Shown piece by piece: positions 1-55,465 of a stretch of 64,000 nt of DNA. Numbering within the stretch: position 1 is the first letter of the stretch; each line of letters opens with the position of its first letter. The stretch comes from Octopus vulgaris (Eukaryota). The notes below the pieces were generated by a model. That model did not search any database and was not told where the DNA came from. It saw only the letters and a program-made list of their open reading frames with translations. The DNA lies in contig OX597814.1 in assembly GCA_951406725.2 (NCBI GenBank), positions 146,258,001-146,322,000 on the forward strand, written 5' to 3'. A program made the position numbers and the translations under genes.

Positions 1-1540
1 GTGGAGAAACTCACTGGATGCTGGCTATATTCCAAAAAACCTTCTGTTCCAGTCTGTTGTCCCAGTTTTCAAAAAGGGAAACAAGTCCCTTGCAGTGAAT
101 TACCGTCCGATCTCACTCACCTCTCATATCATCAAGGTATTTGAGAGGGTGGTGAGATCTCGAATAACCCAATTTCTGGAAAGCAACAGACGGCTGATCT
201 CCAACCAACATGGGTTCCGTAATGGAAGGGACTGCCTAACGCAGCTCCTGCATCACTTTGAGGACATTTTGAGAGTTTTGGGAGAGGGCTCCAACACCGA
301 TGTCATCTACCTTGATTTCAGTAAGGCCTTCGACTGGGTCGATCACAAGATCCTATTGAAAAAACTATCCAACATTGGTGTCTCTGGAAAGTTACTGAAA
401 TGGATTAAGTGTTTCCTGACAGACAGATCTCAACATGTTGTAGTTGAAGGGGTAAAATCAAGCCCAGCCAAAGTCAGTAGTGGCGTTCCGCAAGGCACTG
501 TGCTGGGCCCACTTCTTTTCATCATTTACATTAATGACATCATCAAGCACAGCAACATAAAAATCTTTGCAGATGACTCCAAGCTACAGAAGGTCATAAA
601 TGAGGCGAGTGACCGGACATGCCTTCAGTCAGATCTACTGGCTGTTATCCAATGGGCAGAAAAAAACAATATGCTGCTGAACGAGGATAAATTTGAGCTA
701 ATCCACTTTGGAAAAGAGGATGCCCTGAAACTCCCATACTCCCTTCCTTCAGGTGAAACTCTCGCGGCGTCCAACAACATCAGAGACTTGGGAGTAATTG
801 TGGACAACAACGTAAGCTGGGCCACTCATATAAACACCAAAGTTGACATGGCCCGCAGAATTTGTTCCTGGATTCTCAGAACTTTCCAGTCGAGAGATAT
901 CCACACCATTATCCTTCTCTTCTCCACTTTTGCCCGACCCCACCTTGAATACTGTTGTCCACTGTGGTCTCCCCACACAATACAAGGTATCATAAAAGTT
1001 GAAGCACCTCAAAGGGCAATCACAAAAAAGATAGATGGCATGACAGGCCTCGACTATTGGGGTCGACTAGAAAAGCTAAAGCTAAAACTCTATTCTCTCC
1101 AACGTCGTCGTGAGCGCTACATCATCTGCATGATGTGGAAAATATTCCATCAGCATTGCCCAAATGATGTTGGCATCACCTTTAAGGTACATCCAAGGCT
1201 TGGGCCCCGTGCCATCCGCCCAAAACAAAAATCGCACTCTCATCTCATAACAACAATACGGCATAATTATTTCACCTCAATTGGCCCCGCTCTCTTTAAC
1301 ATTACACCAAAACACATTAAAACAGAAACTAACCCTATAGGGTTCAAGAAGTCTTTGGACAGATTCCTTCAAGAAATCCCGGATAAACTCCCTACACCCG
1401 GATATGTCTCTGTAAACAATAACTCTCTACTTGAGTGGGCCATAGTGCCCAAATTCTGACTTGAAAGACTTCACCAGGTGGTGCTATTAAGTTAGACATG
1501 GCCTGGGCCAATAATGGCCGAAACCTATCAAAGTATCAAA

Positions 1541-2741: not shown

Positions 2742-3205
2742 TTAAGAGCATGTAAGAGGTTACGGAATAAGATATCAGTTTTCTAATACATAAATCATTC
2801 TAGAACCTTTAGATACGGAGGTTATATAAGACATTACATACATCATTATACATGGGAGTGTGTGATGTTTTTTTTTCTCTGTGTGTATATGTGCGTGTAT
2901 ATTTGGGTTTAGAGAAAGGAGAAACGAAATGAGTGCAGTGCAAAATAATTCAAAGAAGAGACAACCGAAAATTCAATTGTGGACTACGAATAGGGCGAGG
3001 ACGATAGAAACATTAAGTTTCGGTAAAACGTGAAAACAGTTAGACATAAACAAATGAAACGACCAGAACAGAGTAAAAACAGAATCACCAGCACACATTT
3101 CTATTTATCATCGGTAGGATTCGGTTATCGCAGATTAACAACTGCATCGCCTGCTACAGTCTGTAGATTTATAGAAAGAATTTTGGTTAGCGTATTGAAC
3201 AGTGT

Positions 3206-3505
3206 GGAGGTGCAATGGCCCAGTGGTTAGGGCTGCGGACTCATGGTCGGATGATCGCGGTTTCGATTCCCAGACCGGGCGTTGTGTGTGTTTATTGAGC
3301 GAAAACAACTAAAAGCTCCACAAGGCTCCGGTAGGGGGCTTTGACGACCGTTGTTGTACTCTTTCGCCATAACTTTCTCTAACTCTCTCTTCCCGTTTCT
3401 TGAGTAACGCTGTGATGGACTGGTGTCTCGTCCAGCTGGGGGAAACACATACGCACAGAAACCGAGAAACCGGGACCATGAGCCTGGCTAAGCTTGAAAA
3501 TGGTG
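3206..3505 (+). mobile_element. tRNA-derived SINE, family B
   Basis: A box TGGCCCAGTGG, B-box-like GTTTCGATTCCC; near-colinear copy at 33433-33733. Confidence 0.85.
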
Positions 3506-5479
3506 ACGTTTATCGTTTATCGTATTGAACAGTAAAGTTGTACAAGAAGAAATTTTTGGGACCACGCAATACTTTCATAAGCTTAAAAAATTGTGGAAAG
3601 GATTCAGAAAAATTACGTACGGTAAATACTGAAATCTGTCGAATTGTCAAAAATGGTAAAGAAGAAAATAATTCTTTCTGTTGATACATATGTTGCTCTG
3701 AAGTTCCCACGGGGACACACACACACACACATATATTTATGTGTGTGTGTGTGTGTACACGTGTGTATAGTGCGTGTGCGTATGTGCGTGCATGCATCCG
3801 TGCGTGTATATGTGTGTGTCTGCGTGTATTTGTTCAGGTCTTTTGCGCGCGCCTATGAATAAAAACCCAAGTATAGAACTTTACTAGTAATTCAGCCTCT
3901 ATAATCGTACGTTACAAAATCTAATGTGTTATTGCAAGAGTAGCTGTGCTTTCCATAGCGTGTTGTCTTCTAAGTGAATGCTCTAGACAAGGAAATTTCA
4001 AGACATAGATTAGTATTCTAGTATTCTTATAAAGACTAAAAATGTCTGAATATATTGCATCTTATTAAGTTGTATGTAAAATCTATCTCGCATTGTCCAC
4101 TTCTTTTATTATCAACAGTCACGGACTGGTAAGTAAACATAGAATTAATTGAGTAAATTGATTGAAAGCATGCTTATACAGTCATTAGTTTACTTTCAAA
4201 AGTAAGAAAATGAAACTGTAGAGCACGCATTGAAGTGTTTTCAGATTCATGACGTTTGCTTTTACAATGATGTAAACTAAAGAGCAATCAAACAATTAAT
4301 TAATGCAAGTAATTAAAATATTCAAAGAAAATAATTAAGAATTAGAAAACAGTAAGAAAACAAATACGTACTGAGTGACTCTGTATATGTTTTCGATATT
4401 TCTTTGTCAATATAATGTTATGAAGTGTCTGAACGTTTTATAACCGTAAAAAATATATAATTCGAATACCACGAACATAACGGAAATATAGTAAACAATT
4501 CTATATTAAATATAATGATTTCTTAATTTCGATTAAACATTTTTCTGGTTCATCTCCATTAAAACAGATCACATTTATTTCATCATTATTCCGACATTCC
4601 CTGCTGATGTGTTCCATGATTCTTGGAATAAATGTTATTTGTTCGCAGTATTTTCTACTCCCATACACCTCCAGGCTAAAGTGCCTTTAAACAAGCGATT
4701 AAAAGATTCAACCTATTAAATTGTAAGTCAACACAGACCTAAGATAAATAAAAAAGCAATCAGAAGATAATTTCAAATGGTATATTTATTCATTGCATTG
4801 ATACCATTAACGATACTCCTCAAACGTTCCAAATCCTACATACTTTCACAGACGATGAGTTATTCAAATATTATTGAAGATGTGAGTTATTTAAGTGCTA
4901 TTCCAGTTTGTCTTCCAAAATAGCCGTTAAGGCCATGTGTGGCTTTCACGTAAAAGGAAATTATGAGATAACATTACTTGGTTACCTTAAGGGGCTCATA
5001 TGTGATTCATATTTGCAATCATTCAGGTAAAAGAATAAACTTTGTTCGACGGAAGTCGTATGGAGCAAGAATTATAAGTAATAAGGGTATGTAATTAAAA
5101 ATGGACAAAGTAGCGTTTATTGAACCCGCTATAATCAAATTAATTAAATTCATTAAAATGTAATTAGAGTTAGTGGAATTTAAACTAAAATCTCTTACAG
5201 GATTAACTAGCAGTGGGATGATTTTAGATTGTTACAAAGCAGATATCTGTCATTAACAATATATTAAATTAATTAAATATAAAAGAGTGATAGTTAAATA
5301 GATAGTGTCTTATATATTATGGCATGACAATAAGGTGAACCAAAAAGAAGTTTATATTTCGAAATTGCGTAATTATGTTCACAATTTACAGATATTTGTT
5401 TCGGGATATTACTTGCATACCCAAATATAATCATCATATTACCCGGCAGAAGTGACACAGCAAAGTTGCAGCAGATTAC

Positions 5480-6275
5480 AGGAGTTCACACCGGAAATTT
5501 TGATATTGCAAATAATAGTAAATCAAACGAAGATAATTAAAATTTTCAACGCATGGGCAATACCAATATTGAAACAGTGTACAACATTACTTCGGGAAAC
5601 TAAAAACAAATGAACTGAGGAGGTTTATCGAACAATAATCTAAATATGCGTATCGTTGTTAGGAATCTGTACCTATCAAGAAAATAGGGACAGAATGGAA
5701 TATTTAATACAATATACACGGTACAGTTAACAATTATTGAATTCGAGATGTACGTTAACAAATTGAAGAAAAGCGTATTTACGCATCCAGGAAAATAAAT
5801 ACCAAATACAAGATAGCATTAAAACTTTTAGAATCAAAATAGGAAAATTAGATGTTGAAAAGCATCAAGAAAATATGTTACAGATATAATCTGACAGACA
5901 AGCGAAAGGCAAATGGAATAAATGGTCATCTCAGCTGAAATATGCAGATCTGATGAGAGAAACGAAATCCTGATTAATGATTATTGACGACAAAGAAGGG
6001 AATACAACAATTATTGTTAATATATATATAGAGAGAATATTCAGCAAGATTCTGACAATGGGGCAATTGTCAAAACAGATGGCATTCACTACCCTGTGGA
6101 ATATAAATGTTGCTATATTACATATGCAGAAGACAGAGTCACAAAAACGTGAAGATCTGGAAATAGAGATTATAAAATGTGGATATTGAAAAAAGAAACT
6201 AATTAACATGACAATAACGAGGATTACATTGTCAATAAGAACAACGAAGGCTACCGCGACGATGATGATGATTAT
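5480..6275 (+). pseudogene. Heavily decayed R4/Dong-like (RLE) LINE, C-terminal part
   Basis: Remnant motifs KIFNAWAIPIL, LYLSRK, DLMRETK, DKEGNTTIIVNI, EDLEIEIIKC, followed by a short (GAT)n tail. Confidence 0.55.
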
Positions 6276-41095: not shown

Positions 41096-42095
41096 CATAC
41101 ATACACACAAACGCACAGATAGACACATGTATATATTTTATAAATGTATTGTGTGAATGGTCGCGTAGGCGTATGGGTTTTTTTGAAACTATCTTGTTTG
41201 TTGCTCTGAAAAACAAATGCTATTTTATTCTTTTAATAAAAGTTTGAAAATTAAAATGAAATTCAAGAATTGCGTACAATATTTTATTTTAATTTCGTGC
41301 ATGGGAAGAAGATATTACTTTTAAGTAAAAACGAAATTAATCTTATCCAGGATGAGATTAAATAAATATAATTTTAATTTCTTTTGAGGATACTTGTGGC
41401 AAGCAGGAACAATATCCTTGATCGTTAAAAGCCGTGAACAAAATTACTCTTAATAATATAGTGCGTCAACAAGCTGGAAACATTCTGCCTTCAATCATCC
41501 CTTGGAGGATAGATATAAGATCAATTATCGCTAAGTGAAAACTGTTTCCGAATCACACACTTCCTACAAATATAAATAGTTATTACTCACGTGCATACAA
41601 GATATTTGCTATGCTATTTTGAAATGTTTTAACAGCTTCTCAGATCATTGTGTTAAAATAGAAACATTAAAAAATTGTTTACACTTTCACTTGTTTGTCA
41701 TGAATTTCTACGCTTGTATGTTAATATTATGCTGGCTACATCATCTAACACCATCAATGCAGGTTTAAAATTTATTTATTTTTCAATTAACATTTATTCG
41801 ACGCTTAAGAGGTGCACTTTTGTTCCCGGAAAACAAGGGATCATATCACAAAACTTCATTAGTTATTTAGAATTTTCCTATTAACATCTCGTAAACACAC
41901 ATCAAGTTACAAATGTTTCAAGCCATATGATTATGGTAGATGTTGATAGCTAATTATGGTGTCATCCACGACAAAAGACGCAATATATCATAGTGTACAA
42001 GCTGTACTCCGAGCGGCAAGGCAAATCGTAGGCAAGCAATTCGTTACGTGGGTTTCAACGTGGTGAGAGGGGCGCCAGAAAAGCTTCATATATAT

Positions 42096-42516
42096 ATTAA
42101 TCAAAATAAAAACATGACGCCAAGAATTCAGTGGTACATATGATTTGGGCATTTATTAGACGGATTTATAACAATGCATAATGTGTGTCTATGGCCTTCT
42201 TCAGTCGCGCACAATTACTACTTCAAGGACATGTATTACATCAAAAATTCTACGTTGGGGATGCAAATCCTCTCTGTCGCTTACGACATAATGTGGCGTA
42301 CGAAATATGCTGGAGCCACATTATGTCGTATGCGACTGAGAGGATTTGCATCCCCAACGTAGAATTCTTGATGTAATACATATCCTTGAAGTAGTAACTG
42401 TGCGCGGCTGAAGAAGGCCATAGACACACATTATGCATTGTTATAAATCCGTCTAATAAAGGCCCGAAACATATGTACCGCTGAATTCTTGGCATCATGT
42501 TTTTATTTTGATTAAT
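42096..42516. mobile_element. 421-bp fold-back element: 202-bp inverted arms, 17-nt loop, outward HHR motifs
   Basis: Arms 42096-42297 and 42315-42516 are colinear without indels; the left end abuts (TA)n. Confidence 0.9.
42404..42481 (+). ncRNA. Type I hammerhead ribozyme with extended stem II
   Basis: GCGG-CTGAAGA-A-GGCC-A-TAGAC...GTCTA-ATAAA-GGCC-C-GAAAC-ATAT-GTA-CCGC; predicted GUA cleavage triplet. Confidence 0.75.
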
Positions 42517-42583
42517 TTAGTCCACCACCTACACCACCAAATGGTATATACAGGTGCTTACAATTATCAAGTACTCACCCTGA

Positions 42584-45856: not shown

Positions 45857-45905
<49 letters not shown>

Positions 45906-45914
45906 GTGTGTGTG
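45560..45914. repeat. (CA)n/(TA)n compound microsatellite flanking the palindrome
   Basis: Direct reading. Confidence 0.95.
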
Positions 45915-46067
45915 ATTGTGTATAGAAGAATATATTAATAAAAAGAATTCCAACCTTGTCTGATTTTCACGTTTTATTTACAATCTTATAATGATATATT
46001 ATAAGATAATATATTATAATTGAATAAAATAAAATGAAATAGTAGAATGTTAAATATTCATTCTGAT

Positions 46068-46112
46068 TGAACTAGTATTTTCATGCATTGAATTCTGCAA
46101 TCTTCGGGTTCA
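46068..46112 (-). ncRNA. Minimal hammerhead-like motif, left arm (stem III palindrome broken)
   Basis: Mirror of 53508-53552 but reads GAAAATACTA. Confidence 0.5.
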
Positions 46113-46606
46113 TGTAGTAGTGTTGACAGTCATGCTTCACAATTTTTGACTGTAGCAAGATGAGTGATTCTGTGCTATAAATACAGCTGGGTAGGCTCCA
46201 GAGTGCTAGGTTTTGCAAACTGTATTCTGACCAATCAGTGTGTAGTATCACTCAATTACTTAAGCTGATTGGTTGGTTGAGCTGATTGGTTTAGGCATCA
46301 CGCTTTGTTGGACAGGTCAAGAGTCCTGTATCTTGACCCTGGCCGAAGCAGCAATTGTTGGGTTATTTTTAGAAATGTTGTAAATATCCTTTGTCAGAGA
46401 TTTTTATATTTTTATATTTCAATTGTCATCATCATCATTGTCAGCACCTTAATTATTGTTGCTAGTGGTGATGGTGGTGGCAATAGAACTTTTAACCCTA
46501 AATAAGATAATTTTCCTGCTATCTTCGTCTTGATCACCTTTAGTATTGTTGTTGTTGTTAGTGGTCATGGTCGTAGCAGTGGAAGTAATACCTCTAAGTA
46601 TTATTA

Positions 46607-47086
46607 TTATTGCTTATTTAGCTTGGGTTCGAATTTATCAATAAAATTCTTTTCTCTGATTTTCCTCTCGATTTCACTTGGGCTGTGTAATTTGTAGAAT
46701 GGAAATATTATATATATTTTCCGACCACATGTTGCTAGGTGGTTACTCAAAGGTATCTGACGGACCTCTGGGTCTCTAATCTGTTGCCGGTGTACACGTG
46801 AGCGTTCTAATAGTGCGTTTCCCGTCTGACCTACATATATTTCTTCACAATTTGGGCATTTGATGCAGTAAATTAAATTTCTGCTTTTGCAGTTCATATT
46901 CGCGTTTGTGAATATTTTCCCGGTTTTTGTGTTTATATATTGACCGGTATGTATGAATTGGCATGTGCCACATCGGCTATCATTGCATTTAGATACCGTG
47001 AATGTTTGGTCTTTGTTGCTGAGGTCAAATTTTGCCTTTGTTAGTAATGTTTTCAAGTTTTTAGGCTGTCTTTTACTAAGCACCAT
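46607..47086 (-). CDS. PLE Cys-rich linker and GIY-YIG endonuclease, separated from RT by an in-frame TAA
   Basis: RQPKNL, CxxxxCxxC, NLIYCIKCPNC..IYVGQT, ER..H, NH, RE..FI motifs. Confidence 0.9.
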   Translation of the reverse strand: MVLSKRQPKNLKTLLTKAKFDLSNKDQTFTVSKCNDSRCGTCQFIHTGQYINTKTGKIFTNANMNCKSRNLIYCIKCPNCEEIYVGQTGNALLERSRVHRQQIRDPEVRQIPLSNHLATCGRKIYIIFPFYKLHSPSEIERKIREKNFIDKFEPKLNKQ

Positions 47087-47110
47087 AGCTCGATCCTTGA
47101 TTATGTCTTT

Positions 47111-48934
47111 TTATTCATTACTTTGGGCAATGATTGGTAGGTTTGCTTTGGCAATGTTGAAGATATTCTGGTGACATGGGTTGTGTGTCACTATGAATGG
47201 TATGACTTGTTCTTGTTTTCCTCTTCCTTGGGTTGTCTTAAGTTGTTGTATAGGTATTTTTATAGCCCGCTGTATGCCATTTTCTATAAGTAGAGATGGG
47301 TATTTTTGTTTGAGCAAAAATTCTCTTAGTTCTATTAGGCGTTTGTTCCTGATATTTGCATCTTCTACAATAGTACAAATTCTTCTGGCTAGGCAGTATG
47401 GGATGTTACGTTTTGTATGTGGTGGATGGCACGACTTAAAATTTAGGTATTGATGTGTGTCTGTGTGTTTATAGTATATATCTGTGGTGATGGTGGTGTC
47501 TTTTTTAATTACCATTATATCCAGGAATGGTAATTTGGTACTACTCATCTCCTTTGTAAATTTGAGAGATGGGTGTAGGTTGTTCAGGAGGATATTGAAC
47601 TCTTCCAGAGTATTTAGAGATTCTGTCCAGATTATGAAACAGTCGTCTAGGTATCTCTTCCATGCCTTTTCAATATACTTTCTAAATCCAGTGCCATAGT
47701 TTACCTCCACCTCTTGGTAGAGTTGTTCTTCTAAGTATCCCATTACAGAGTTGGCGTAAACGGGAGCAAACCTCGTTCCCATCGCCGTGCCTCTAATTTG
47801 GATGTAATTCTTTCCATTGAAGAAGAATGTGTTATTTTCTAGAATAAGTTTGACTGTGTCTAATATAAATGGCACTGTGAATCTGCTGGGAATCACTTCT
47901 CTATGTTTTTCTAACCAGTATTTAATCGCCTTTATTCCTAAATCGTGTGGAATATTGGTGTAGAGGCTTACCACATCAAAACTTAGCAAAACTGAATTTG
48001 TTTCTGTTGTTTTGGGAAGATGGGACAGGAAGTCGATGTCATCCCTGATGAAACTTGGTATGTAAGTACATAGTGGTTTCAAAACAATGTCAATAAAATT
48101 GCTTAGACGGTGTGTAGGGCATGCTGGACCAGCTATAATAGGTCTAAGTTTTAGGTCTTTTGGATGTAATAATTTTATGTACTCACTTTCTTGTTCTTTT
48201 ACTGCCTGTTGAATGATTTTTGATTTGTGTATTTTTGGTAAGCCGTAGAAGTTGCTGGGTTTTGGTTCAAAATTGGTGATGTAGTCTTTTTCATTATCCG
48301 TAAGTGAGTTGTGGTGTGTTGAAATCAGGTTGTTGATCTTTTTCATGATGTGGTGGTCTATATTTGCGGGTATTTCACAATAGAAGGTTGTATCCTTCAG
48401 TTGGTCTTCAACCAAATCCTTATAGTATTCGGTATCCATAATAACAATTGCACCACCTTTATCTGCTTGTTTAATTATTATTGTTTGATCGTTTTGTATA
48501 CGTTTACATGCAGACATCTCTGATTTGCTAATGTTTGGCCTAACATTGGTATTGCGTCTAAGGGGAAATTTAGACAGGATATCAATGTATTGGTAAAGGT
48601 AGTTATTTCTTCCTTTTGGTGGGGTGAAATTTGATTTATTCCTTACTAGGGATTCATCAATCTCATTACTTTTGTTAGCGAAGAATTCTACAAGTCGTAA
48701 TTTTCGACAGAATTTTTGGATATCCTCCTTTAATTCTTGGTGGTTGGCTGTTGGTGTAGGTGTGAATTTCAGTCCTTTTGACAGAAGTTGGATTTCATCA
48801 TTGTCAAGATCTCTTTTTGATAAATTAATTATTTTAGGATCTATACGTTCAGTTGTTTGGGGTATGTTTCCTCTTGGATTTTTTCTTTCTCCGGTGTTTG
48901 TTGTCCTGACGTAAAAAAATGGATTTTTTTCTGG
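47111..48934 (-). CDS. PLE reverse transcriptase (frame open from 48934; first ATG at 48517)
   Basis: IINLS..LLSKGLKFTP, ADKGG, FYGLPKIHK, RPII, SFDVVSLYTNIP, GTAMG, RYLDD, LPFLD, YL...SCHP. Confidence 0.95.
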   Translation of the reverse strand, partial: PEKNPFFYVRTTNTGERKNPRGNIPQTTERIDPKIINLSKRDLDNDEIQLLSKGLKFTPTPTANHQELKEDIQKFCRKLRLVEFFANKSNEIDESLVRNKSNFTPPKGRNNYLYQYIDILSKFPLRRNTNVRPNISKSEMSACKRIQNDQTIIIKQADKGGAIVIMDTEYYKDLVEDQLKDTTFYCEIPANIDHHIMKKINNLISTHHNSLTDNEKDYITNFEPKPSNFYGLPKIHKSKIIQQAVKEQESEYIKLLHPKDLKLRPIIAGPACPTHRLSNFIDIVLKPLCTYIPSFIRDDIDFLSHLPKTTETNSVLLSFDVVSLYTNIPHDLGIKAIKYWLEKHREVIPSRFTVPFILDTVKLILENNTFFFNGKNYIQIRGTAMGTRFAPVYANSVMGYLEEQLYQEVEVNYGTGFRKYIEKAWKRYLDDCFIIWTESLNTLEEFNILLNNLHPSLKFTKEMSSTKLPFLDIMVIKKDTTITTDIYYKHTDTHQYLNFKSCHPPHTKRNIPYCLARRICTIVEDANIRNKRLIELREFLLKQKYPSLLIENGIQRAIKIPIQQLKTTQGRGKQEQVIPFIVTHNPCHQNIFNIAKANLPIIAQSNE

Positions 48935-50085
48935 TTATGATTTATATTCCTGTTGATGTTTGCTTGATGAATTTTGCGTTTTGGTTGTGGTACTTTACTT
49001 GGTTTCGTTATGTTTTCTGTCTTGTTTTTGGTATTATGTATGCTACTTTTCAATTTCTTGTTAGCATTGTTTTTAACCACCTGGAGAAATGATCTGGGTT
49101 TACTTCTAGATCTAGATCGGTTTTTTGTCCAGTTTCTTGTGGGTAATCTCTGTTGAGGTCTTGAAAATGATCTCCTGTTATTTCTACTGCTAATGGTCTG
49201 TTCAAAACAATATCTATTTTGTTTGTGCTTTTTGTTCATGTTGTGTGCATTAGGGTGTTTGCATACAAAATGGGAAGAGTTCTTACCGTAGTTCGTCTTC
49301 GATTCGTGGTGAAACGGGTGTTCATGTTGCCACGTGTTCTGGTGTATGTTGCGTTGGTGAGGTTGTCCACTTTTAATGCTATTTCTCGGAGTTCTGGTGT
49401 CTTTACCGTAATTTGTAGCATATTTGTCGAGAAATAATTGTTTCCGCTGCCAAAACTTTCTTGATCTGCTTTCTTCTTTTGAGATATCTCTGATCCATAG
49501 TTCTCGCATTTTTTCTGCTATATTGCCGGTCGTTAGTTTGGATATTTCATCTCTGATTTGATCATCGATAGCTTCGTATTTGGCTTTGTAGCGGGATTGT
49601 TTAGACAGGGTAATGGAGATGTCGGTCCTGAATTTTATCAAACTAAGGTCCCATCGAAGTTTAGTTTCTTCCTCTGGTTCTCCTGCAATTTCTTTAATTA
49701 GGTACTTCCGAGGAAGTATGGGTGCCGCTAAAGATATCCATTTCGAAAGTATTTCAGCATATTTTTCGCATTTATATGCCTTCCAGAAGTTTTGTTTTCT
49801 TATGTTAAGGAGTTTTTTCCATGTCTTCTGTATCTCTTCTCTTTTTCGGTGTGCCTCTTTTTCCAGATTTCTTTCGTTTATTTCTGACATCCAAGGAGGT
49901 TGTGGTAGGCTTTCTCTTGTAGATTTTATAATTGTTGGTATCATTTCAGCTAAATTCTTAATTTCAGTGTTTATGTGTTCATTTCCAAGTTTTCCGTCTG
50001 TAGACTGTTTTTCTATTTCCTTTAAAATAGAGGATTGTGTGTCAATCATCGTGATGAGTGTTGATAATTTCGATGAAATTTCCAT
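48841..50085 (-). CDS. PLE upstream ORF (at least 414 aa): helical, coiled-coil-like N half and basic low-complexity C half; 5' end may be truncated by the fold-back
   Basis: Stop-free across spacer and left arm. Codons upstream of the ATG at 50085 are only the antisense of the right arm. Confidence 0.72.
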   Translation of the reverse strand: MEISSKLSTLITMIDTQSSILKEIEKQSTDGKLGNEHINTEIKNLAEMIPTIIKSTRESLPQPPWMSEINERNLEKEAHRKREEIQKTWKKLLNIRKQNFWKAYKCEKYAEILSKWISLAAPILPRKYLIKEIAGEPEEETKLRWDLSLIKFRTDISITLSKQSRYKAKYEAIDDQIRDEISKLTTGNIAEKMRELWIRDISKEESRSRKFWQRKQLFLDKYATNYGKDTRTPRNSIKSGQPHQRNIHQNTWQHEHPFHHESKTNYGKNSSHFVCKHPNAHNMNKKHKQNRYCFEQTISSRNNRRSFSRPQQRLPTRNWTKNRSRSRSKPRSFLQVVKNNANKKLKSSIHNTKNKTENITKPSKVPQPKRKIHQANINRNINHNQKKIHFFTSGQQTPEKEKIQEETYPKQLNV

Positions 50086-50779
50086 AACGACCGGCAATAT
50101 AGCAGAAAAAATGCGAGAACTATGGATCAGAGATATCTCAAAAGAAGAAAGCAGATCAAGAAAGTTTTGGCAGCGGAAACAATTATTTCTCGACAAATAT
50201 GCTACAAATTACGGTAAAGACACCAGAACTCCGAGAAATAGCATTAAAAGTGGACAACCTCACCAACGCAACATACACCAGAACACGTGGCAACATGAAC
50301 ACCCGTTTCACCACGAATCGAAGACGAACTACGGTAAGAACTCTTCCCATTTTGTATGCAAACACCCTAATGCACACAACATGAACAAAAAGCACAAACA
50401 AAATAGATATTGTTTTGAACAGACCATTAGCAGTAGAAATAACAGGAGATCATTTTCAAGACCTCAACAGAGATTACCCACAAGAAACTGGACAAAAAAC
50501 CGATCTAGATCTAGAAGTAAACCCAGATCATTTCTCCAGGTGGTTAAAAACAATGCTAACAAGAAATTGAAAAGTAGCATACATAATACCAAAAACAAGA
50601 CAGAAAACATAACGAAACCAAGTAAAGTACCACAACCAAAACGCAAAATTCATCAAGCAAACATCAACAGGAATATAAATCATAACCAGAAAAAAATCCA
50701 TTTTTTTACGTCAGGACAACAAACACCGGAGAAAGAAAAAATCCAAGAGGAAACATACCCCAAACAACTGAACGTATAG
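50085..50779 (+). CDS. 5'-truncated copy of the PLE upstream ORF (right arm)
   Basis: TTGNIAEK...YPKQLNV is identical to the left-arm product. Confidence 0.65.
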
Positions 50780-52509
50780 ATCCTAAAATAATTAATTTAT
50801 CAAAAAGAGATCTTGACAATGATGAAATCCAACTTCTGTCAAAAGGACTGAAATTCACACCTACACCAACAGCCAACCACCAAGAATTAAAGGAGGATAT
50901 CCAAAAATTCTGTCGAAAATTACGACTTGTAGAATTCTTCGCTAACAAAAGTAATGAGATTGATGAATCCCTAGTAAGGAATAAATCAAATTTCACCCCA
51001 CCAAAAGGAAGAAATAACTACCTTTACCAATACATTGATATCCTGTCTAAATTTCCCCTTAGACGCAATACCAATGTTAGGCCAAACATTAGCAAATCAG
51101 AGATGTCTGCATGTAAACGTATACAAAACGATCAAACAATAATAATTAAACAAGCAGATAAAGGTGGTGCAATTGTTATTATGGATACCGAATACTATAA
51201 GGATTTGGTTGAAGACCAACTGAAGGATACAACCTTCTATTGTGAAATACCCGCAAATATAGACCACCACATCATGAAAAAGATCAACAACCTGATTTCA
51301 ACACACCACAACTCACTTACGGATAATGAAAAAGACTACATCACCAATTTTGAACCAAAACCCAGCAACTTCTACGGCTTACCAAAAATACACAAATCAA
51401 AAATCATTCAACAGGCAGTAAAAGAACAAGAAAGTGAGTACATAAAATTATTACATCCAAAAGACCTAAAACTTAGACCTATTATAGCTGGTCCAGCATG
51501 CCCTACACACCGTCTAAGCAATTTTATTGACATTGTTTTGAAACCACTATGTACTTACATACCAAGTTTCATCAGGGATGACATCGACTTCCTGTCCCAT
51601 CTTCCCAAAACAACAGAAACAAATTCAGTTTTGCTAAGTTTTGATGTGGTAAGCCTCTACACCAATATTCCACACGATTTAGGAATAAAGGCGATTAAAT
51701 ACTGGTTAGAAAAACATAGAGAAGTGATTCCCAGCAGATTCACAGTGCCATTTATATTAGACACAGTCAAACTTATTCTAGAAAATAACACATTCTTCTT
51801 CAATGGAAAGAATTACATCCAAATTAGAGGCACGGCGATGGGAACGAGGTTTGCTCCCGTTTACGCCAACTCTGTAATGGGATACTTAGAAGAACAACTC
51901 TACCAAGAGGTGGAGGTAAACTATGGCACTGGATTTAGAAAGTATATTGAAAAGGCATGGAAGAGATACCTAGACGACTGTTTCATAATCTGGACAGAAT
52001 CTCTAAATACTCTGGAAGAGTTCAATATCCTCCTGAACAACCTACACCCATCTCTCAAATTTACAAAGGAGATGAGTAGTACCAAATTACCATTCCTGGA
52101 TATAATGGTAATTAAAAAAGACACCACCATCACCACAGATATATACTATAAACACACAGACACACATCAATACCTAAATTTTAAGTCGTGCCATCCACCA
52201 CATACAAAACGTAACATCCCATACTGCCTAGCCAGAAGAATTTGTACTATTGTAGAAGATGCAAATATCAGGAACAAACGCCTAATAGAACTAAGAGAAT
52301 TTTTGCTCAAACAAAAATACCCATCTCTACTTATAGAAAATGGCATACAGCGGGCTATAAAAATACCTATACAACAACTTAAGACAACCCAAGGAAGAGG
52401 AAAACAAGAACAAGTCATACCATTCATAGTGACACACAACCCATGTCACCAGAATATCTTCAACATTGCCAAAGCAAACCTACCAATCATTGCCCAAAGT
52501 AATGAATAA
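50686..52509 (+). CDS. PLE reverse transcriptase (frame open from 50686; first ATG at 51103)
   Basis: Same motifs as the left arm. Confidence 0.95.
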   Translation, partial: PEKNPFFYVRTTNTGERKNPRGNIPQTTERIDPKIINLSKRDLDNDEIQLLSKGLKFTPTPTANHQELKEDIQKFCRKLRLVEFFANKSNEIDESLVRNKSNFTPPKGRNNYLYQYIDILSKFPLRRNTNVRPNISKSEMSACKRIQNDQTIIIKQADKGGAIVIMDTEYYKDLVEDQLKDTTFYCEIPANIDHHIMKKINNLISTHHNSLTDNEKDYITNFEPKPSNFYGLPKIHKSKIIQQAVKEQESEYIKLLHPKDLKLRPIIAGPACPTHRLSNFIDIVLKPLCTYIPSFIRDDIDFLSHLPKTTETNSVLLSFDVVSLYTNIPHDLGIKAIKYWLEKHREVIPSRFTVPFILDTVKLILENNTFFFNGKNYIQIRGTAMGTRFAPVYANSVMGYLEEQLYQEVEVNYGTGFRKYIEKAWKRYLDDCFIIWTESLNTLEEFNILLNNLHPSLKFTKEMSSTKLPFLDIMVIKKDTTITTDIYYKHTDTHQYLNFKSCHPPHTKRNIPYCLARRICTIVEDANIRNKRLIELREFLLKQKYPSLLIENGIQRAIKIPIQQLKTTQGRGKQEQVIPFIVTHNPCHQNIFNIAKANLPIIAQSNE

Positions 52510-52533
52510 AAAGACATAATCAAGGATCGAGCT

Positions 52534-53013
52534 ATGGTGCTTAGTAAAAGACAGCCTAAAAACTTGAAAACATTACTAACAAAGGCAAAATTTGACCTCA
52601 GCAACAAAGACCAAACATTCACGGTATCTAAATGCAATGATAGCCGATGTGGCACATGCCAATTCATACATACCGGTCAATATATAAACACAAAAACCGG
52701 GAAAATATTCACAAACGCGAATATGAACTGCAAAAGCAGAAATTTAATTTACTGCATCAAATGCCCAAATTGTGAAGAAATATATGTAGGTCAGACGGGA
52801 AACGCACTATTAGAACGCTCACGTGTACACCGGCAACAGATTAGAGACCCAGAGGTCCGTCAGATACCTTTGAGTAACCACCTAGCAACATGTGGTCGGA
52901 AAATATATATAATATTTCCATTCTACAAATTACACAGCCCAAGTGAAATCGAGAGGAAAATCAGAGAAAAGAATTTTATTGATAAATTCGAACCCAAGCT
53001 AAATAAGCAATAA
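52534..53013 (+). CDS. PLE Cys-rich linker and GIY-YIG endonuclease, same frame as RT after TAA 52507-52509
   Basis: Reads aat gaa TAA aaa gac ata atc aag gat cga gct atg. Confidence 0.9.
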   Translation: MVLSKRQPKNLKTLLTKAKFDLSNKDQTFTVSKCNDSRCGTCQFIHTGQYINTKTGKIFTNANMNCKSRNLIYCIKCPNCEEIYVGQTGNALLERSRVHRQQIRDPEVRQIPLSNHLATCGRKIYIIFPFYKLHSPSEIERKIREKNFIDKFEPKLNKQ

Positions 53014-53330
53014 TAATAATACTTAGAGGTATTACTTCCACTGCTACGACCATGACCACTAACAACAACAACAATACTAAAGGTGATCAAGACGAAGATA
53101 GCAGGAAAATTATCTTATTTAGGGTTAAAAGTTCTATTGCCACCACCATCACCACTAGCAACAATAATTAAGGTGCTGACAATGATGATGATGACAATTG
53201 AAATATAAAAATATAAAAATCTCTGACAAAGGATATTTACAACATTTCTAAAAATAACCCAACAATTGCTGCTTCGGCCAGGGTCAAGATACAGGACTCT
53301 TGACCTGTCCAACAAAGCGTGATGCCTAAA

Positions 53331-53444
53331 CCAATCAGCTCAACCAACCAATCAGCTTAAGTAATTGAGTGATACTACACACTGATTGGTCAGAATACAG
53401 TTTGCAAAACCTAGCACTCTGGAGCCTACCCAGCTGTATTTATA
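53331..53444 (+). promoter_or_regulatory. Candidate pseudo-LTR promoter: three CCAAT boxes and TATTTATA (mirrored at 46176-46289)
   Basis: ccaatcagc twice (53331, 53348), ctgattgg (about 53382), TATTTATA at 53437-53444 (TATAAATA on minus). Confidence 0.4.
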
Positions 53445-53507
53445 GCACAGAATCACTCATCTTGCTACAGTCAAAAATTGTGAAGCATGACTGTCAACAC
53501 TACTACA

Positions 53508-53552
53508 TGAACCCGAAGATTGCAGAATTCAATGCATGAAAGTACTAGTTCA
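53508..53552 (+). ncRNA. Minimal type I hammerhead-like motif in the PLE 3' region, CCGA core variant
   Basis: TGAAC-CCGAAGA-T-TGCA-gaattcaa-TGCA-T-GAAA-GTAC-TA-GTTCA: 5-bp stem I, 4-bp stem II, palindromic AGTACT. Confidence 0.62.
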
Positions 53553-53719
53553 ATCAGAATGAATATTTAACATTCTACTATTTCATTTTATTTTATTCAA
53601 TTATAATATATTATCTTATAATATATCATTATAAGATTGTAAATAAAACGTGAAAATCAGACAAGGTTGGAATTCTTTTTATTAATATATATATATATAT
53701 ATATATATACATAAATATC

Positions 53720-54075: not shown

Positions 54076-55465
54076 ATGGATCCTAAGATGGTTAGTGCAA
54101 AGGATAATGCTGAGAAAAAAGAAAAAGCTGATTGCGATAGAATTGAAGAAGGAATTCTCTGATAAATAAGAGAGAGGAGTGTATGTAGTGGACATAGCAT
54201 ATTGATACGACCGAAACAAGTCGATGATCTTCACCATCCCGAATAAAAAAGGACGAGATCAAAGCCGTTGCAACAACATAGGATCTGTCCAGGCTCACTA
54301 AGCAACGCACATGTGACCACGAAATTATGGTAAAATAGTTCTATGGATCAACGAGAAGCAACCCGCAGCGCATACGATTACAGAGACCATCATCTGCGAG
54401 AAATCGCGAACGCTGTATTAGGATCTCCTGAAGCAGAACCCTGGAACATTACAGGACTGGTGTTTATAGCGTCGTCAGGTATGGAGAAGCAGCGAGTTGT
54501 GACACGAAGGCACCTGAATATTTCTTACGCAAATCCCGTCAGCTCATCGCAACCGAGGATTGCACCACACAACAAGTATTCAACTGTGCTGAAACTGGCC
54601 TCTTTTTGTGGGAAAAATGTCCAGACAAACCTACATAACTGTAGATCAGAAGAAAATGCCAGGCCACAAGCGTATGAAAGATAGGCTAACTCTCACCCTT
54701 TGTGCCAATGCGAGTGGAGACTTGAATATTAAGCCGCTCCTTGTCTACCATTTCAAGTCGCACAAAATTTTGTTGCAGGTCATATGGAGTGCAAACATCA
54801 AAGCCGGGGTCACCAGGCAATTTTTCTCCAAGTGGGTCAACCTTGTATTCGGACCAGCAATGGAAAAGTACCTTCTGGAGAACAATCTTCCTCTCAAAGC
54901 TTCTGCTCACCCTCCTAACCTCGAGGATGATATCCTGGACGAATTAAAATTTAGAAACGTTATTTACATTACTTGCAGCACCACCCCTACCTCGCAGCCC
55001 ATGGACTAACAGGTGATTTCTAATTTTAAAAAAAATTGTACACCATACAACTGTTTCGTCGGTGCTTGGAAGTCACCGAAAACACAAATCTAACCTTCCG
55101 TGACTTTTGGGAAGATTACTACAGCATAGGAAATTGCCTGAAAATCATCGATATGACCTGACAGGGTGTAACGCAGAGTTCTGCATGGAAGAAACTGCTG
55201 CTTGGCTGCATATCCGAAAGAAAATTCGAGGGGTTTCAGTGCGAGACTTGTCTCTTGGCAAGTCCATGGGCATCGAGGTTTGTTGAGGGAATATTAACGA
55301 TCCCGTCAAGGAACACTCAGTGGAGCTGACGACAGATGAACTCCTGCAGCATCAGGAGCAGCAACATTTGGATGCGGTGGAAGGGATTGGTTCTATGGCG
55401 GAGGACAGTGTAGCAGAGAATGTTATCACCACGAGTGACATAAAGGCAGTGATAGCAAAGTGACG
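54076..55465 (+). pseudogene. Tigger/pogo (TIGD1-like, DDE_1) transposase remnant
   Basis: MDPK..., QQVFNCAETGLF, TYIT..K.MPGHK.MKDRLTLTLCANASGD..KPLLVYH, QPMD; multiple frameshifts and stops. Confidence 0.88.

Follow-up and report, generated by a model that had tools for sequence, protein, structure and literature searches.

A separate first reading frame and a conserved candidate slippery site in a Neptune-like, endonuclease-bearing Penelope-like element of Octopus vulgaris

How a reverse transcriptase without a start codon of its own is made, and what the long open reading frame in front of it encodes, are the questions raised by a transposable element in a stretch of Octopus vulgaris DNA of 64,000 nucleotides (contig OX597814.1, positions 146,258,001 to 146,322,000 of the forward strand), which is referred to here as the window. 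The element is a young, high-copy, Neptune-like Penelope-like element (PLE) of the endonuclease-bearing (EN+) type, with a first open reading frame (ORF1) that is separate from the frame (ORF2) for the reverse transcriptase (RT) and an endonuclease (EN) of the GIY-YIG type. Canonical EN+ PLEs have been described as single-ORF elements, and the legend to Fig. 1 of the same paper states that ORF1 can be frameshift-separated with a pseudoknot, the clade being unnamed (PMC8557442, preprint alike); single-ORF EN+ PLEs have also been contrasted with two-ORF EN-minus PLEs (PMC6431247). From sequence comparisons we argue that ribosomes probably enter the start-less RT-EN frame through programmed -1 frameshifting, for which a conserved heptamer, U_UUU_UU(U/A/G), is the likely site. 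The argument refers to the following features of the window:

48841..50085, minus strand: ORF1, an ATG-to-TAG frame with 414 of 430 codons, the first 16 codons being lost at the inversion junction
49399..49896, minus strand: all-helical conserved core of ORF1, residues 80-245 of the full protein, with a predicted local distance difference test score (pLDDT) of 95-99
48925..49398, minus strand: ORF1 tail, basic, rich in N, S and H, predicted disordered, K+R 23%, D+E 2.5%
48841..48934, minus strand: ORF1/ORF2 overlap of 94 nt, ORF2 being in the -1 frame
48913..48919, minus strand: U_UUU_UUU in slip register, read as ..H-F-F in ORF1 and as ..P-F-F-Y in ORF2; this heptamer is the candidate -1 frameshift site
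46607..48934, minus strand: ORF2 with RT, CX4CX2C linker (46987-46961) and GIY-YIG endonuclease; first in-frame ATG at residue 140; private TAA at 47111-47113
45884..50085, minus strand: longer of the two insertion arms, with 3' pseudo-long terminal repeat (pseudo-LTR, pLTR) and a tail ending in a (TA)n run
50072..53707, plus strand: inverted, more 5'-truncated arm, with the C-terminal part of ORF1, the heptamer (50701-50707), ORF2 bearing the same TAA, and a (TA)n end
53508..53552, plus strand: hammerhead-like motif in the pseudo-LTR, with the core CCGAAGA rather than CUGANGA and a palindromic helix III

ORF2 opens just after a TAA codon, and five codons further on the sequence CAT TTT TTT ACG presents U_UUU_UUU in slip register; within the overlap, the ORF1 frame contains no other heptamer of slip type. 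The first in-frame ATG of ORF2 is residue 140, which is located past the conserved IINLS and GLKF motifs. Because ORF2 has no start codon of its own, the RT-EN protein is likely made via a ribosomal slip. A second heptamer, A_AAA_AAC, is present at ORF1 codon 336, where a slip would lead to termination, since this heptamer precedes the stop closing the ORF2 frame. U_UUU_UUA is known as the shift site of human immunodeficiency virus (HIV) (PMC5009743). An earlier note on the window had placed the long frame upstream of the RT of an EN+ PLE; the assignment to an EN+ PLE was right, whereas the frame in fact overlaps the RT frame by 94 nt, and the note had overlooked that the RT frame lacks a start codon and is linked to ORF1 through a conserved candidate -1 slippery site.

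The long stop-free frame itself is as that note described it: it runs from ATG to TAG over 414 codons (50085-48841, minus strand), the chance of which at the base composition of ORF1 is about 1e-12, and both quoted motifs are present (EKEAHRKREEIQKTWKKLL at 49863-49807 and RSRSRSKPRS at 49119-49090, minus strand). The length of 414 codons applies to the window, in which the frame is 5'-truncated at the inversion junction, and not to the full form of 430 amino acids. A DNA search of the species' own genome (2.8 Gb) gave 351 candidates, of which 40 were scored and all were about 100% identical; 30 loci were fetched, namely the window copy plus 29 more taken in order of their similarity to it. 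The ORF1 stop is at the same position in all 30 loci, and 28 of the 29 other copies contain the 16 extra N-terminal codons after a GCCAACATG start (MSGKQ...). In twenty 10-kb regions, RT and EN usually form one stop-to-stop frame of 775 codons, and the repeat unit comprises 4271 nt; partial tandems and inverted arms occur. Among 71 distinct own-genome junctions, a set deliberately enriched for fused copies, 59 are of the reference (two-frame) length, 6 are +1, 4 are -1, one is -2 and one is -17, and the T7 run is intact in 71/71. The private changes in ORF1 of 37 young copies (21 nonsynonymous, 9 synonymous and 1 stop; expected 21.4, 7.5 and 2.1) are neutral, as expected after insertion, and no A-to-G excess was found in this family.

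In seven of eight public short-read runs, which bear three organism labels, the junction is crossed by one contig without an indel or a joint; these runs were available as contigs, from which rare forms drop out, and their RNA origin is only a guess. An assembly homopolymer error, considered as the cause of the frame offset, is ruled out by these runs and the own-genome junctions. One run (X9) had no cover over ORF1. Two runs with two other organism labels (X15, X18) hold more than 80% of the sampled words of element copy L031, and the family is therefore common to close species or has recently moved.

Outside the octopus genome, RT-pattern scans led to 123 fetched foreign loci, 69 of which hold the RT N-terminal motif. 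An ORF1 profile match is present in six of these (L092, L138, L139, L142, L145, L146), and in all six the RT lies in the -1 frame, Met is absent ahead of the motif, and TTTTTT(A/G) is in register. Two of the 63 loci without an ORF1 match also contain an in-register U6 run: L175, which has a 0-frame open over at least 110 codons and lies inside the ORF1/heptamer RT group, and L105, which is discussed below. Four further members of the RT group are 5'-truncated. In the RT trees, a branch of 0.61 with a support of 100/100 splits the query and six heptamer loci from every single-ORF locus; the quick tree comprised 72 RTs (29 single-ORF) and the bootstrapped one 37 RTs (16 single-ORF), with a midpoint root only and the degraded L145 omitted. 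As judged from these comparisons, ORF1 and the heptamer are shown to be conserved across a distinct RT subclade. Many of the fetched PLE contigs (L091-L137) are located inside bacterial genome bins and are evidently mis-binned host DNA.

The register of the heptamer can also be followed in the proteins. In 84 of 152 homologs selected for the tail analysis (340-500 amino acids), F-L/F-F occurs within the last 70 residues in 78/84, compared to 13/84 and 27/84 in the two preceding 70-residue windows. It lies within the last 45 residues in 76 homologs, where K, E, Q, M and W never occur at the position before it (0/76; background 20%); this absence fits N-UUU-UUA, because the codons of these residues cannot end in U.

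ORF1 is a large, uncharacterised, conserved family that, according to sequence-based prediction, is composed of a helical bundle and a basic disordered tail. A word search found four relatives, three of which end like the query in IHF(L/F)..G.Q.PE followed by a stop, and a profile of four sequences matched 578 clusters at E<=0.001 and 277 at 1e-10. The named relatives of ORF1 and of the RT are from bivalves or from host DNA inside symbiont assemblies, and scans of metagenome and viral contigs with ORF1 patterns gave no match. RT-sized proteins are absent from the best 150 of the 578 clusters, the longest member having 706 amino acids; this Mytilus model (P0005), considered as a fused form, is an ORF1 piece joined to unrelated upstream sequence. 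The earlier note had named two outcomes that would speak against a separate ORF1, namely that it is the N-terminus of a described single-ORF family and that other copies lack it or decay neutrally. With respect to the former, ORF1 was not found as the N-terminus of a long single-ORF protein among the 120 listed RT relatives (of 428; 433-899 amino acids), which are without an ORF1-sized extension and have ragged called starts, and a dedicated search for ORF1 forms of 754-2150 amino acids found none (weak evidence). With respect to the latter, 28 of 29 copies are full, and the ORF1 sequences of L138 and L146, which are 59% identical over 378 codons, have a dN of 0.30, a dS of about 2.5 (near saturation) and a dN/dS of about 0.12; the value for ORF2 of the same pair (0.115) is like that of ORF1. 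The comparison, with dS near saturation, supports purifying selection on ORF1 in relatives, and the proposed presence of an ORF1-like frame in an EN+ PLE lineage has held up, the frame being both separate and conserved.

The helical N-terminal half suggested by the earlier note is in agreement with an AlphaFold2 prediction based on a 124-row alignment, which places helices at residues 11-241, with a pLDDT of 95-99 over residues 80-245, followed by a disordered tail with an isoelectric point of 11.4. Residues W105, R112, P141, K143, E152 and W213 are nearly invariant. A Pfam scan of 124 ORF1 members revealed no family common to two members, and 0/124 match Gag, capsid, RRM, zinc-knuckle or esterase/SGNH families. 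A sequence search of solved structures, Foldseek searches of PDB and viral structures (0 at E<=0.001) and a VIA wide search gave no significant ORF1 match; the fold searches returned generic helical bundles alone (best Z 9.6, below the helical-bundle threshold; root-mean-square deviation 5.0), negatives that do not establish a new fold. Weak matches to designed coiled coils were obtained for the N-terminal 105 positions (best E 0.00026). Most of the named clusters that neighbour ORF1 in language-model comparisons belong to Gag and coat families; with values of 0.79-0.84 (below 0.9) and low shared features, they serve as leads only.

If the heptamer functions as a shift site, most ribosomes would end at the ORF1 UAG and release the 430-residue protein, and a minority would slip and synthesize an ORF1-RT-zinc finger-GIY-YIG fusion of about 1175 residues. 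The abundant ORF1 protein would then oligomerise through its helical bundle and coat the element RNA by its basic tail, and the few fused enzymes would be carried along into the same ribonucleoprotein. Helical core and basic tail fit the nucleic-acid chaperone function that had been suggested for ORF1, by predicted architecture only. A packaging role like that of Gag/Gag-Pol or of the ORF1p of long interspersed nuclear elements (LINEs), without detectable homology to either, is an analogy whose chances we regard as about even. The inferred likeness to both systems lies in the first protein, which would be abundant and combine an oligomer-like core with a basic region, and most relatives have the same heptamer as HIV (PMC5009743); the element differs from both in that no capsid or RRM match and no conserved downstream structure were found and in that its RT is of the Penelope type with a GIY-YIG domain. 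The broadest version of this proposal, which we put forward tentatively and hold to be possible rather than probable, is that a large, hitherto unrecognised subclade of EN+ PLEs in marine invertebrates follows a Gag-Pol logic, in which a new family of helical ORF1 proteins assembles the RNA of the element into particles and the RT-nuclease is made only when ribosomes slip by -1 on a bare U-run that no conserved structure follows. A standalone, conserved ORF1 in a very young, high-copy family is a candidate structural protein for EN+ PLEs, and the 7-nt heptamer represents a compact, testable signal. This arrangement would explain the ragged internal RT starts from gene callers and hundreds of unnamed ORF1 clusters, and a clade-wide -1 frameshift without a conserved stimulator would, if true, be of interest to the recoding field.

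Several observations weigh against frameshifting at the heptamer and against the role proposed for ORF1. The RNA downstream of the heptamer of this element folds no better than shuffled sequences (z about -0.5), a conserved 3' stimulator, which would be a hairpin or pseudoknot 5-9 nt downstream, was not found at the eight sites folded, only L139 and L142 reaching z<=-2, and a crude pseudoknot score is reached by at most 1/30 shuffles in only 3/8 sites. The ORF1 profile included the tail motif and may enrich for it, and the best stretches of many matches stop earlier. L144 is inside the RT group without a visible in-register heptamer, and L105 has the heptamer and a 36-codon 0-frame yet is outside the group, probably by chance. 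The function of ORF1 is assigned from predicted architecture. Moreover, TTTTTTAG, which resembles a 3' splice site, is found at 5/8 DNA sites (TTTTTTTACGTCAG/G in this element), a G begins the next codon in 57/76 homologs, and at least 7/104 own-genome ORF1 matches from an unselected protein search are open in frame across the junction (633-1214 amino acids). The splice-site likeness speaks for a model in which a 3' splice site has the U-run as its pyrimidine tract, ORF2 being translated from spliced and ORF1 from unspliced RNA. Introns are retained in PLEs (PMC8557442, PMC3846280), and in the single-ORF relatives L167, L168, L171 and L173 an RT frame without ATG opens after a TTTCAG/TTTACAG-like site. 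Splicing needs no codon phase for the U-run, yet a single phase is kept in 78/84 proteins within a fast-evolving tail and at 7/7 ORF1-bearing DNA sites, this element included; an AG is lacking beside the run in L092 and L175 and is impossible in 19/76 homologs, no donor scoring >=6/9 was found in this element in the phase required by the best acceptor, and the seven runs, with the limits given above, contain no joint at the junction. We consider splicing unlikely on these grounds.

That no conserved stimulator was found at the eight sites would also suit routes to ORF2 without a ribosomal slip, i.e. internal initiation at a non-AUG codon, reinitiation downstream of the ORF1 stop, or slippage of the RNA polymerase that inserts an additional U, a process that T-runs can promote. 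Since the run has just 6-7 nt and keeps the X_XXY_YYZ register, no ORF2-frame AUG is located near the ORF1 stop, and the public-run contigs, in which rare forms would be lost, show no inserted T, such routes appear improbable. The fused copies, for their part, would be the active ones if the family were truly single-ORF and the two-frame majority a defective lineage mobilised in trans. Four distinct indels, located in A-runs or close to them, account for the seven fused copies, which look secondary for this reason; three that have one common indel differ in private substitutions, -1 deletions occur in the same A-run too (4/71), and the older copies L078 (97%) and L084 (98.5%) as well as 6/6 foreign ORF1 loci are two-frame, so that we give this explanation very little credence. 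A different kind of alternative accepts the frameshift and takes the ORF1 protein as non-packaging, its sole part being to scaffold or target the fusion as one of its domains, or to interact with the host. The failure to detect Gag, capsid, RRM, zinc-knuckle or esterase families and the generic results of the fold searches are compatible with it, whereas the strongly basic, predicted disordered tail, the expectation that the protein is mostly produced in its standalone form, and the language-model leads favour packaging; it is a possibility to be kept in mind, albeit not the one we expect. Programmed -1 frameshifting thus remains the probable route to the RT-EN protein.

Two further arrangements were noticed among the foreign loci. 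A separate group of six relatives (L162, L167, L168, L171, L173, L178), in which the RT frame opens after a TTTCAG/TTTACAG-like site (in four of them without an ATG), probably has an intron, to judge from these sites, where the ORF1 clade has the slippery site; two related contigs of this set contain a 680-codon ORF adjoining the PLE RT (L168:3109-5148 and L178:601-2646). In L098, which is outside the ORF1 clade and has neither an ORF1 match nor a U6 run, an upstream frame of 363 codons (2808-3896) overlaps an ATG-less RT frame (3701-5797) in -1 phase, and this may be an independent two-ORF arrangement.

With respect to classification, Pfam detects GIY-YIG above and RVT_1 below the curated cut-off in ORF2. 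The zinc-finger-like linker CNDSRCGTC (46987-46961) fits the CX2-5CxxC motif between RT and EN by which Neptune elements are defined (PMC8557442), and the CCHH motif of the EN (IYCIKCPNC...HRQQ...NHL) and the RT N-terminal motifs GLKF and ADKGG are present. The element is like Neptune in the C-terminal GIY-YIG domain with CCHH, the linker, and the GxKF and DKG motifs, as well as in pseudo-LTRs, partial tandems, an inverted 5'-truncated arm, a short tail and a (TA)n target (PMC8557442); its RT is close to the Neptune1_Ap supplement rows of that paper, the likeness to named Neptune references being judged by eye alone. Neptune elements are described there as single-ORF, whereas here a separate helical ORF1 of 430 residues and an ATG-less RT frame overlap in -1 phase. 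We have filed the element as Neptune-like rather than as canonical, because two frames are found in 59/71 own junctions and 6/6 foreign ORF1 loci. The Naiad/Chlamys layout with its N-terminal EN is ruled out by the C-terminal position of the EN. In EN-minus Athena/Terminon elements the RT has no attached endonuclease, whereas a GIY-YIG domain sits in the RT frame here. A frameshift-separated ORF1 with a pseudoknot is the layout of the EN-minus Athena elements.

The contrast with single-ORF EN+ PLEs drawn in the earlier note corresponds to how the group is described, yet it was overstated, as extra ORFs in EN+ PLEs were already in print: Chlamys-2_cBra, an EN+ Chlamys element, has an ORF1 with a zinc knuckle (PMC8557442), esterases occur in fish and mollusc PLEs that are Neptune-like (PMC5408684), and the killifish Neptune repeat.CL27 has an ORF1 of 420 nt (PMC12602865). 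Like these, the octopus element is an EN+ PLE with an additional ORF, be it upstream or accessory; its ORF1 contains no knuckle or esterase and is about three times as long as that of killifish, and in the portions of these papers available a slippery-site overlap with the RT is reported for none of them. The frameshift-separated ORF1 elements of the legend mentioned above (PMC8557442) are similar in the frameshift joining ORF1 to the RT and in the helical or coiled-coil character, and they differ in having a pseudoknot, whereas an endonuclease is present here and no conserved pseudoknot was found. A description of this ORF1 family or of a Neptune slippery site was not found in the literature covered, which did not extend to older Athena/Terminon papers and Repbase; the available parts of PMC3846280, PMC5718144, PMC13282606, PMC9004415 and 10.64898/2026.07.22.740005 contain nothing on ORF1, and Penelope is unmentioned in the first 300,000 characters of PMC5009743. 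Frameshifted ORF1s in PLEs are thus already in print, and this ORF1 family with a conserved slippery site in an EN+ subclade is a new variant.

The insertion in the window is a head-to-head inverted pair, in which 45930-49551 mirrors 53690-50072 with arms that are 99.86% identical, and (TA)n is found at both of its ends. Both arms contain a TAA between RT and EN (47111-47113, 52507-52509), in place of which TTA is found at 66/66 other genomic sites examined. As this codon splits the RT from the EN, the window copy is unable to encode the full enzyme, and since it is common to both arms, the change predates or accompanied the insertion, both arms being derived from one template. The hammerhead-like motif of the plus-strand arm has a mirror copy at about 46068-46112 with one substitution, canonical hammerhead cores are present in the foreign loci L138 and L092, and minimal and variant hammerheads have been reported in pLTRs (PMC4209133); an Rfam search gave no credible match, the hammerhead-like motif included. 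The inversion junction also created a chimeric frame of 395 codons (49592-50779, plus strand) from antisense ORF1 and the ORF1 tail of the plus-strand arm, and its antisense part of 186 codons recurs in all full copies examined.

Three further elements are located elsewhere in the window. At the left end of the window (2-1459, plus strand) lies a truncated non-LTR (LINE-type) RT (Pfam RVT_1, E 1.8e-28), which is unrelated to the PLE insertion. Positions 42093-42519 comprise a 425-bp self-inverted repeat with 92% identity, probably an element resembling a miniature inverted-repeat transposable element, and just right of the insertion (54593-55009, plus strand) a decayed piece of a DDE_1 (pogo/Tigger-like) transposase is found.

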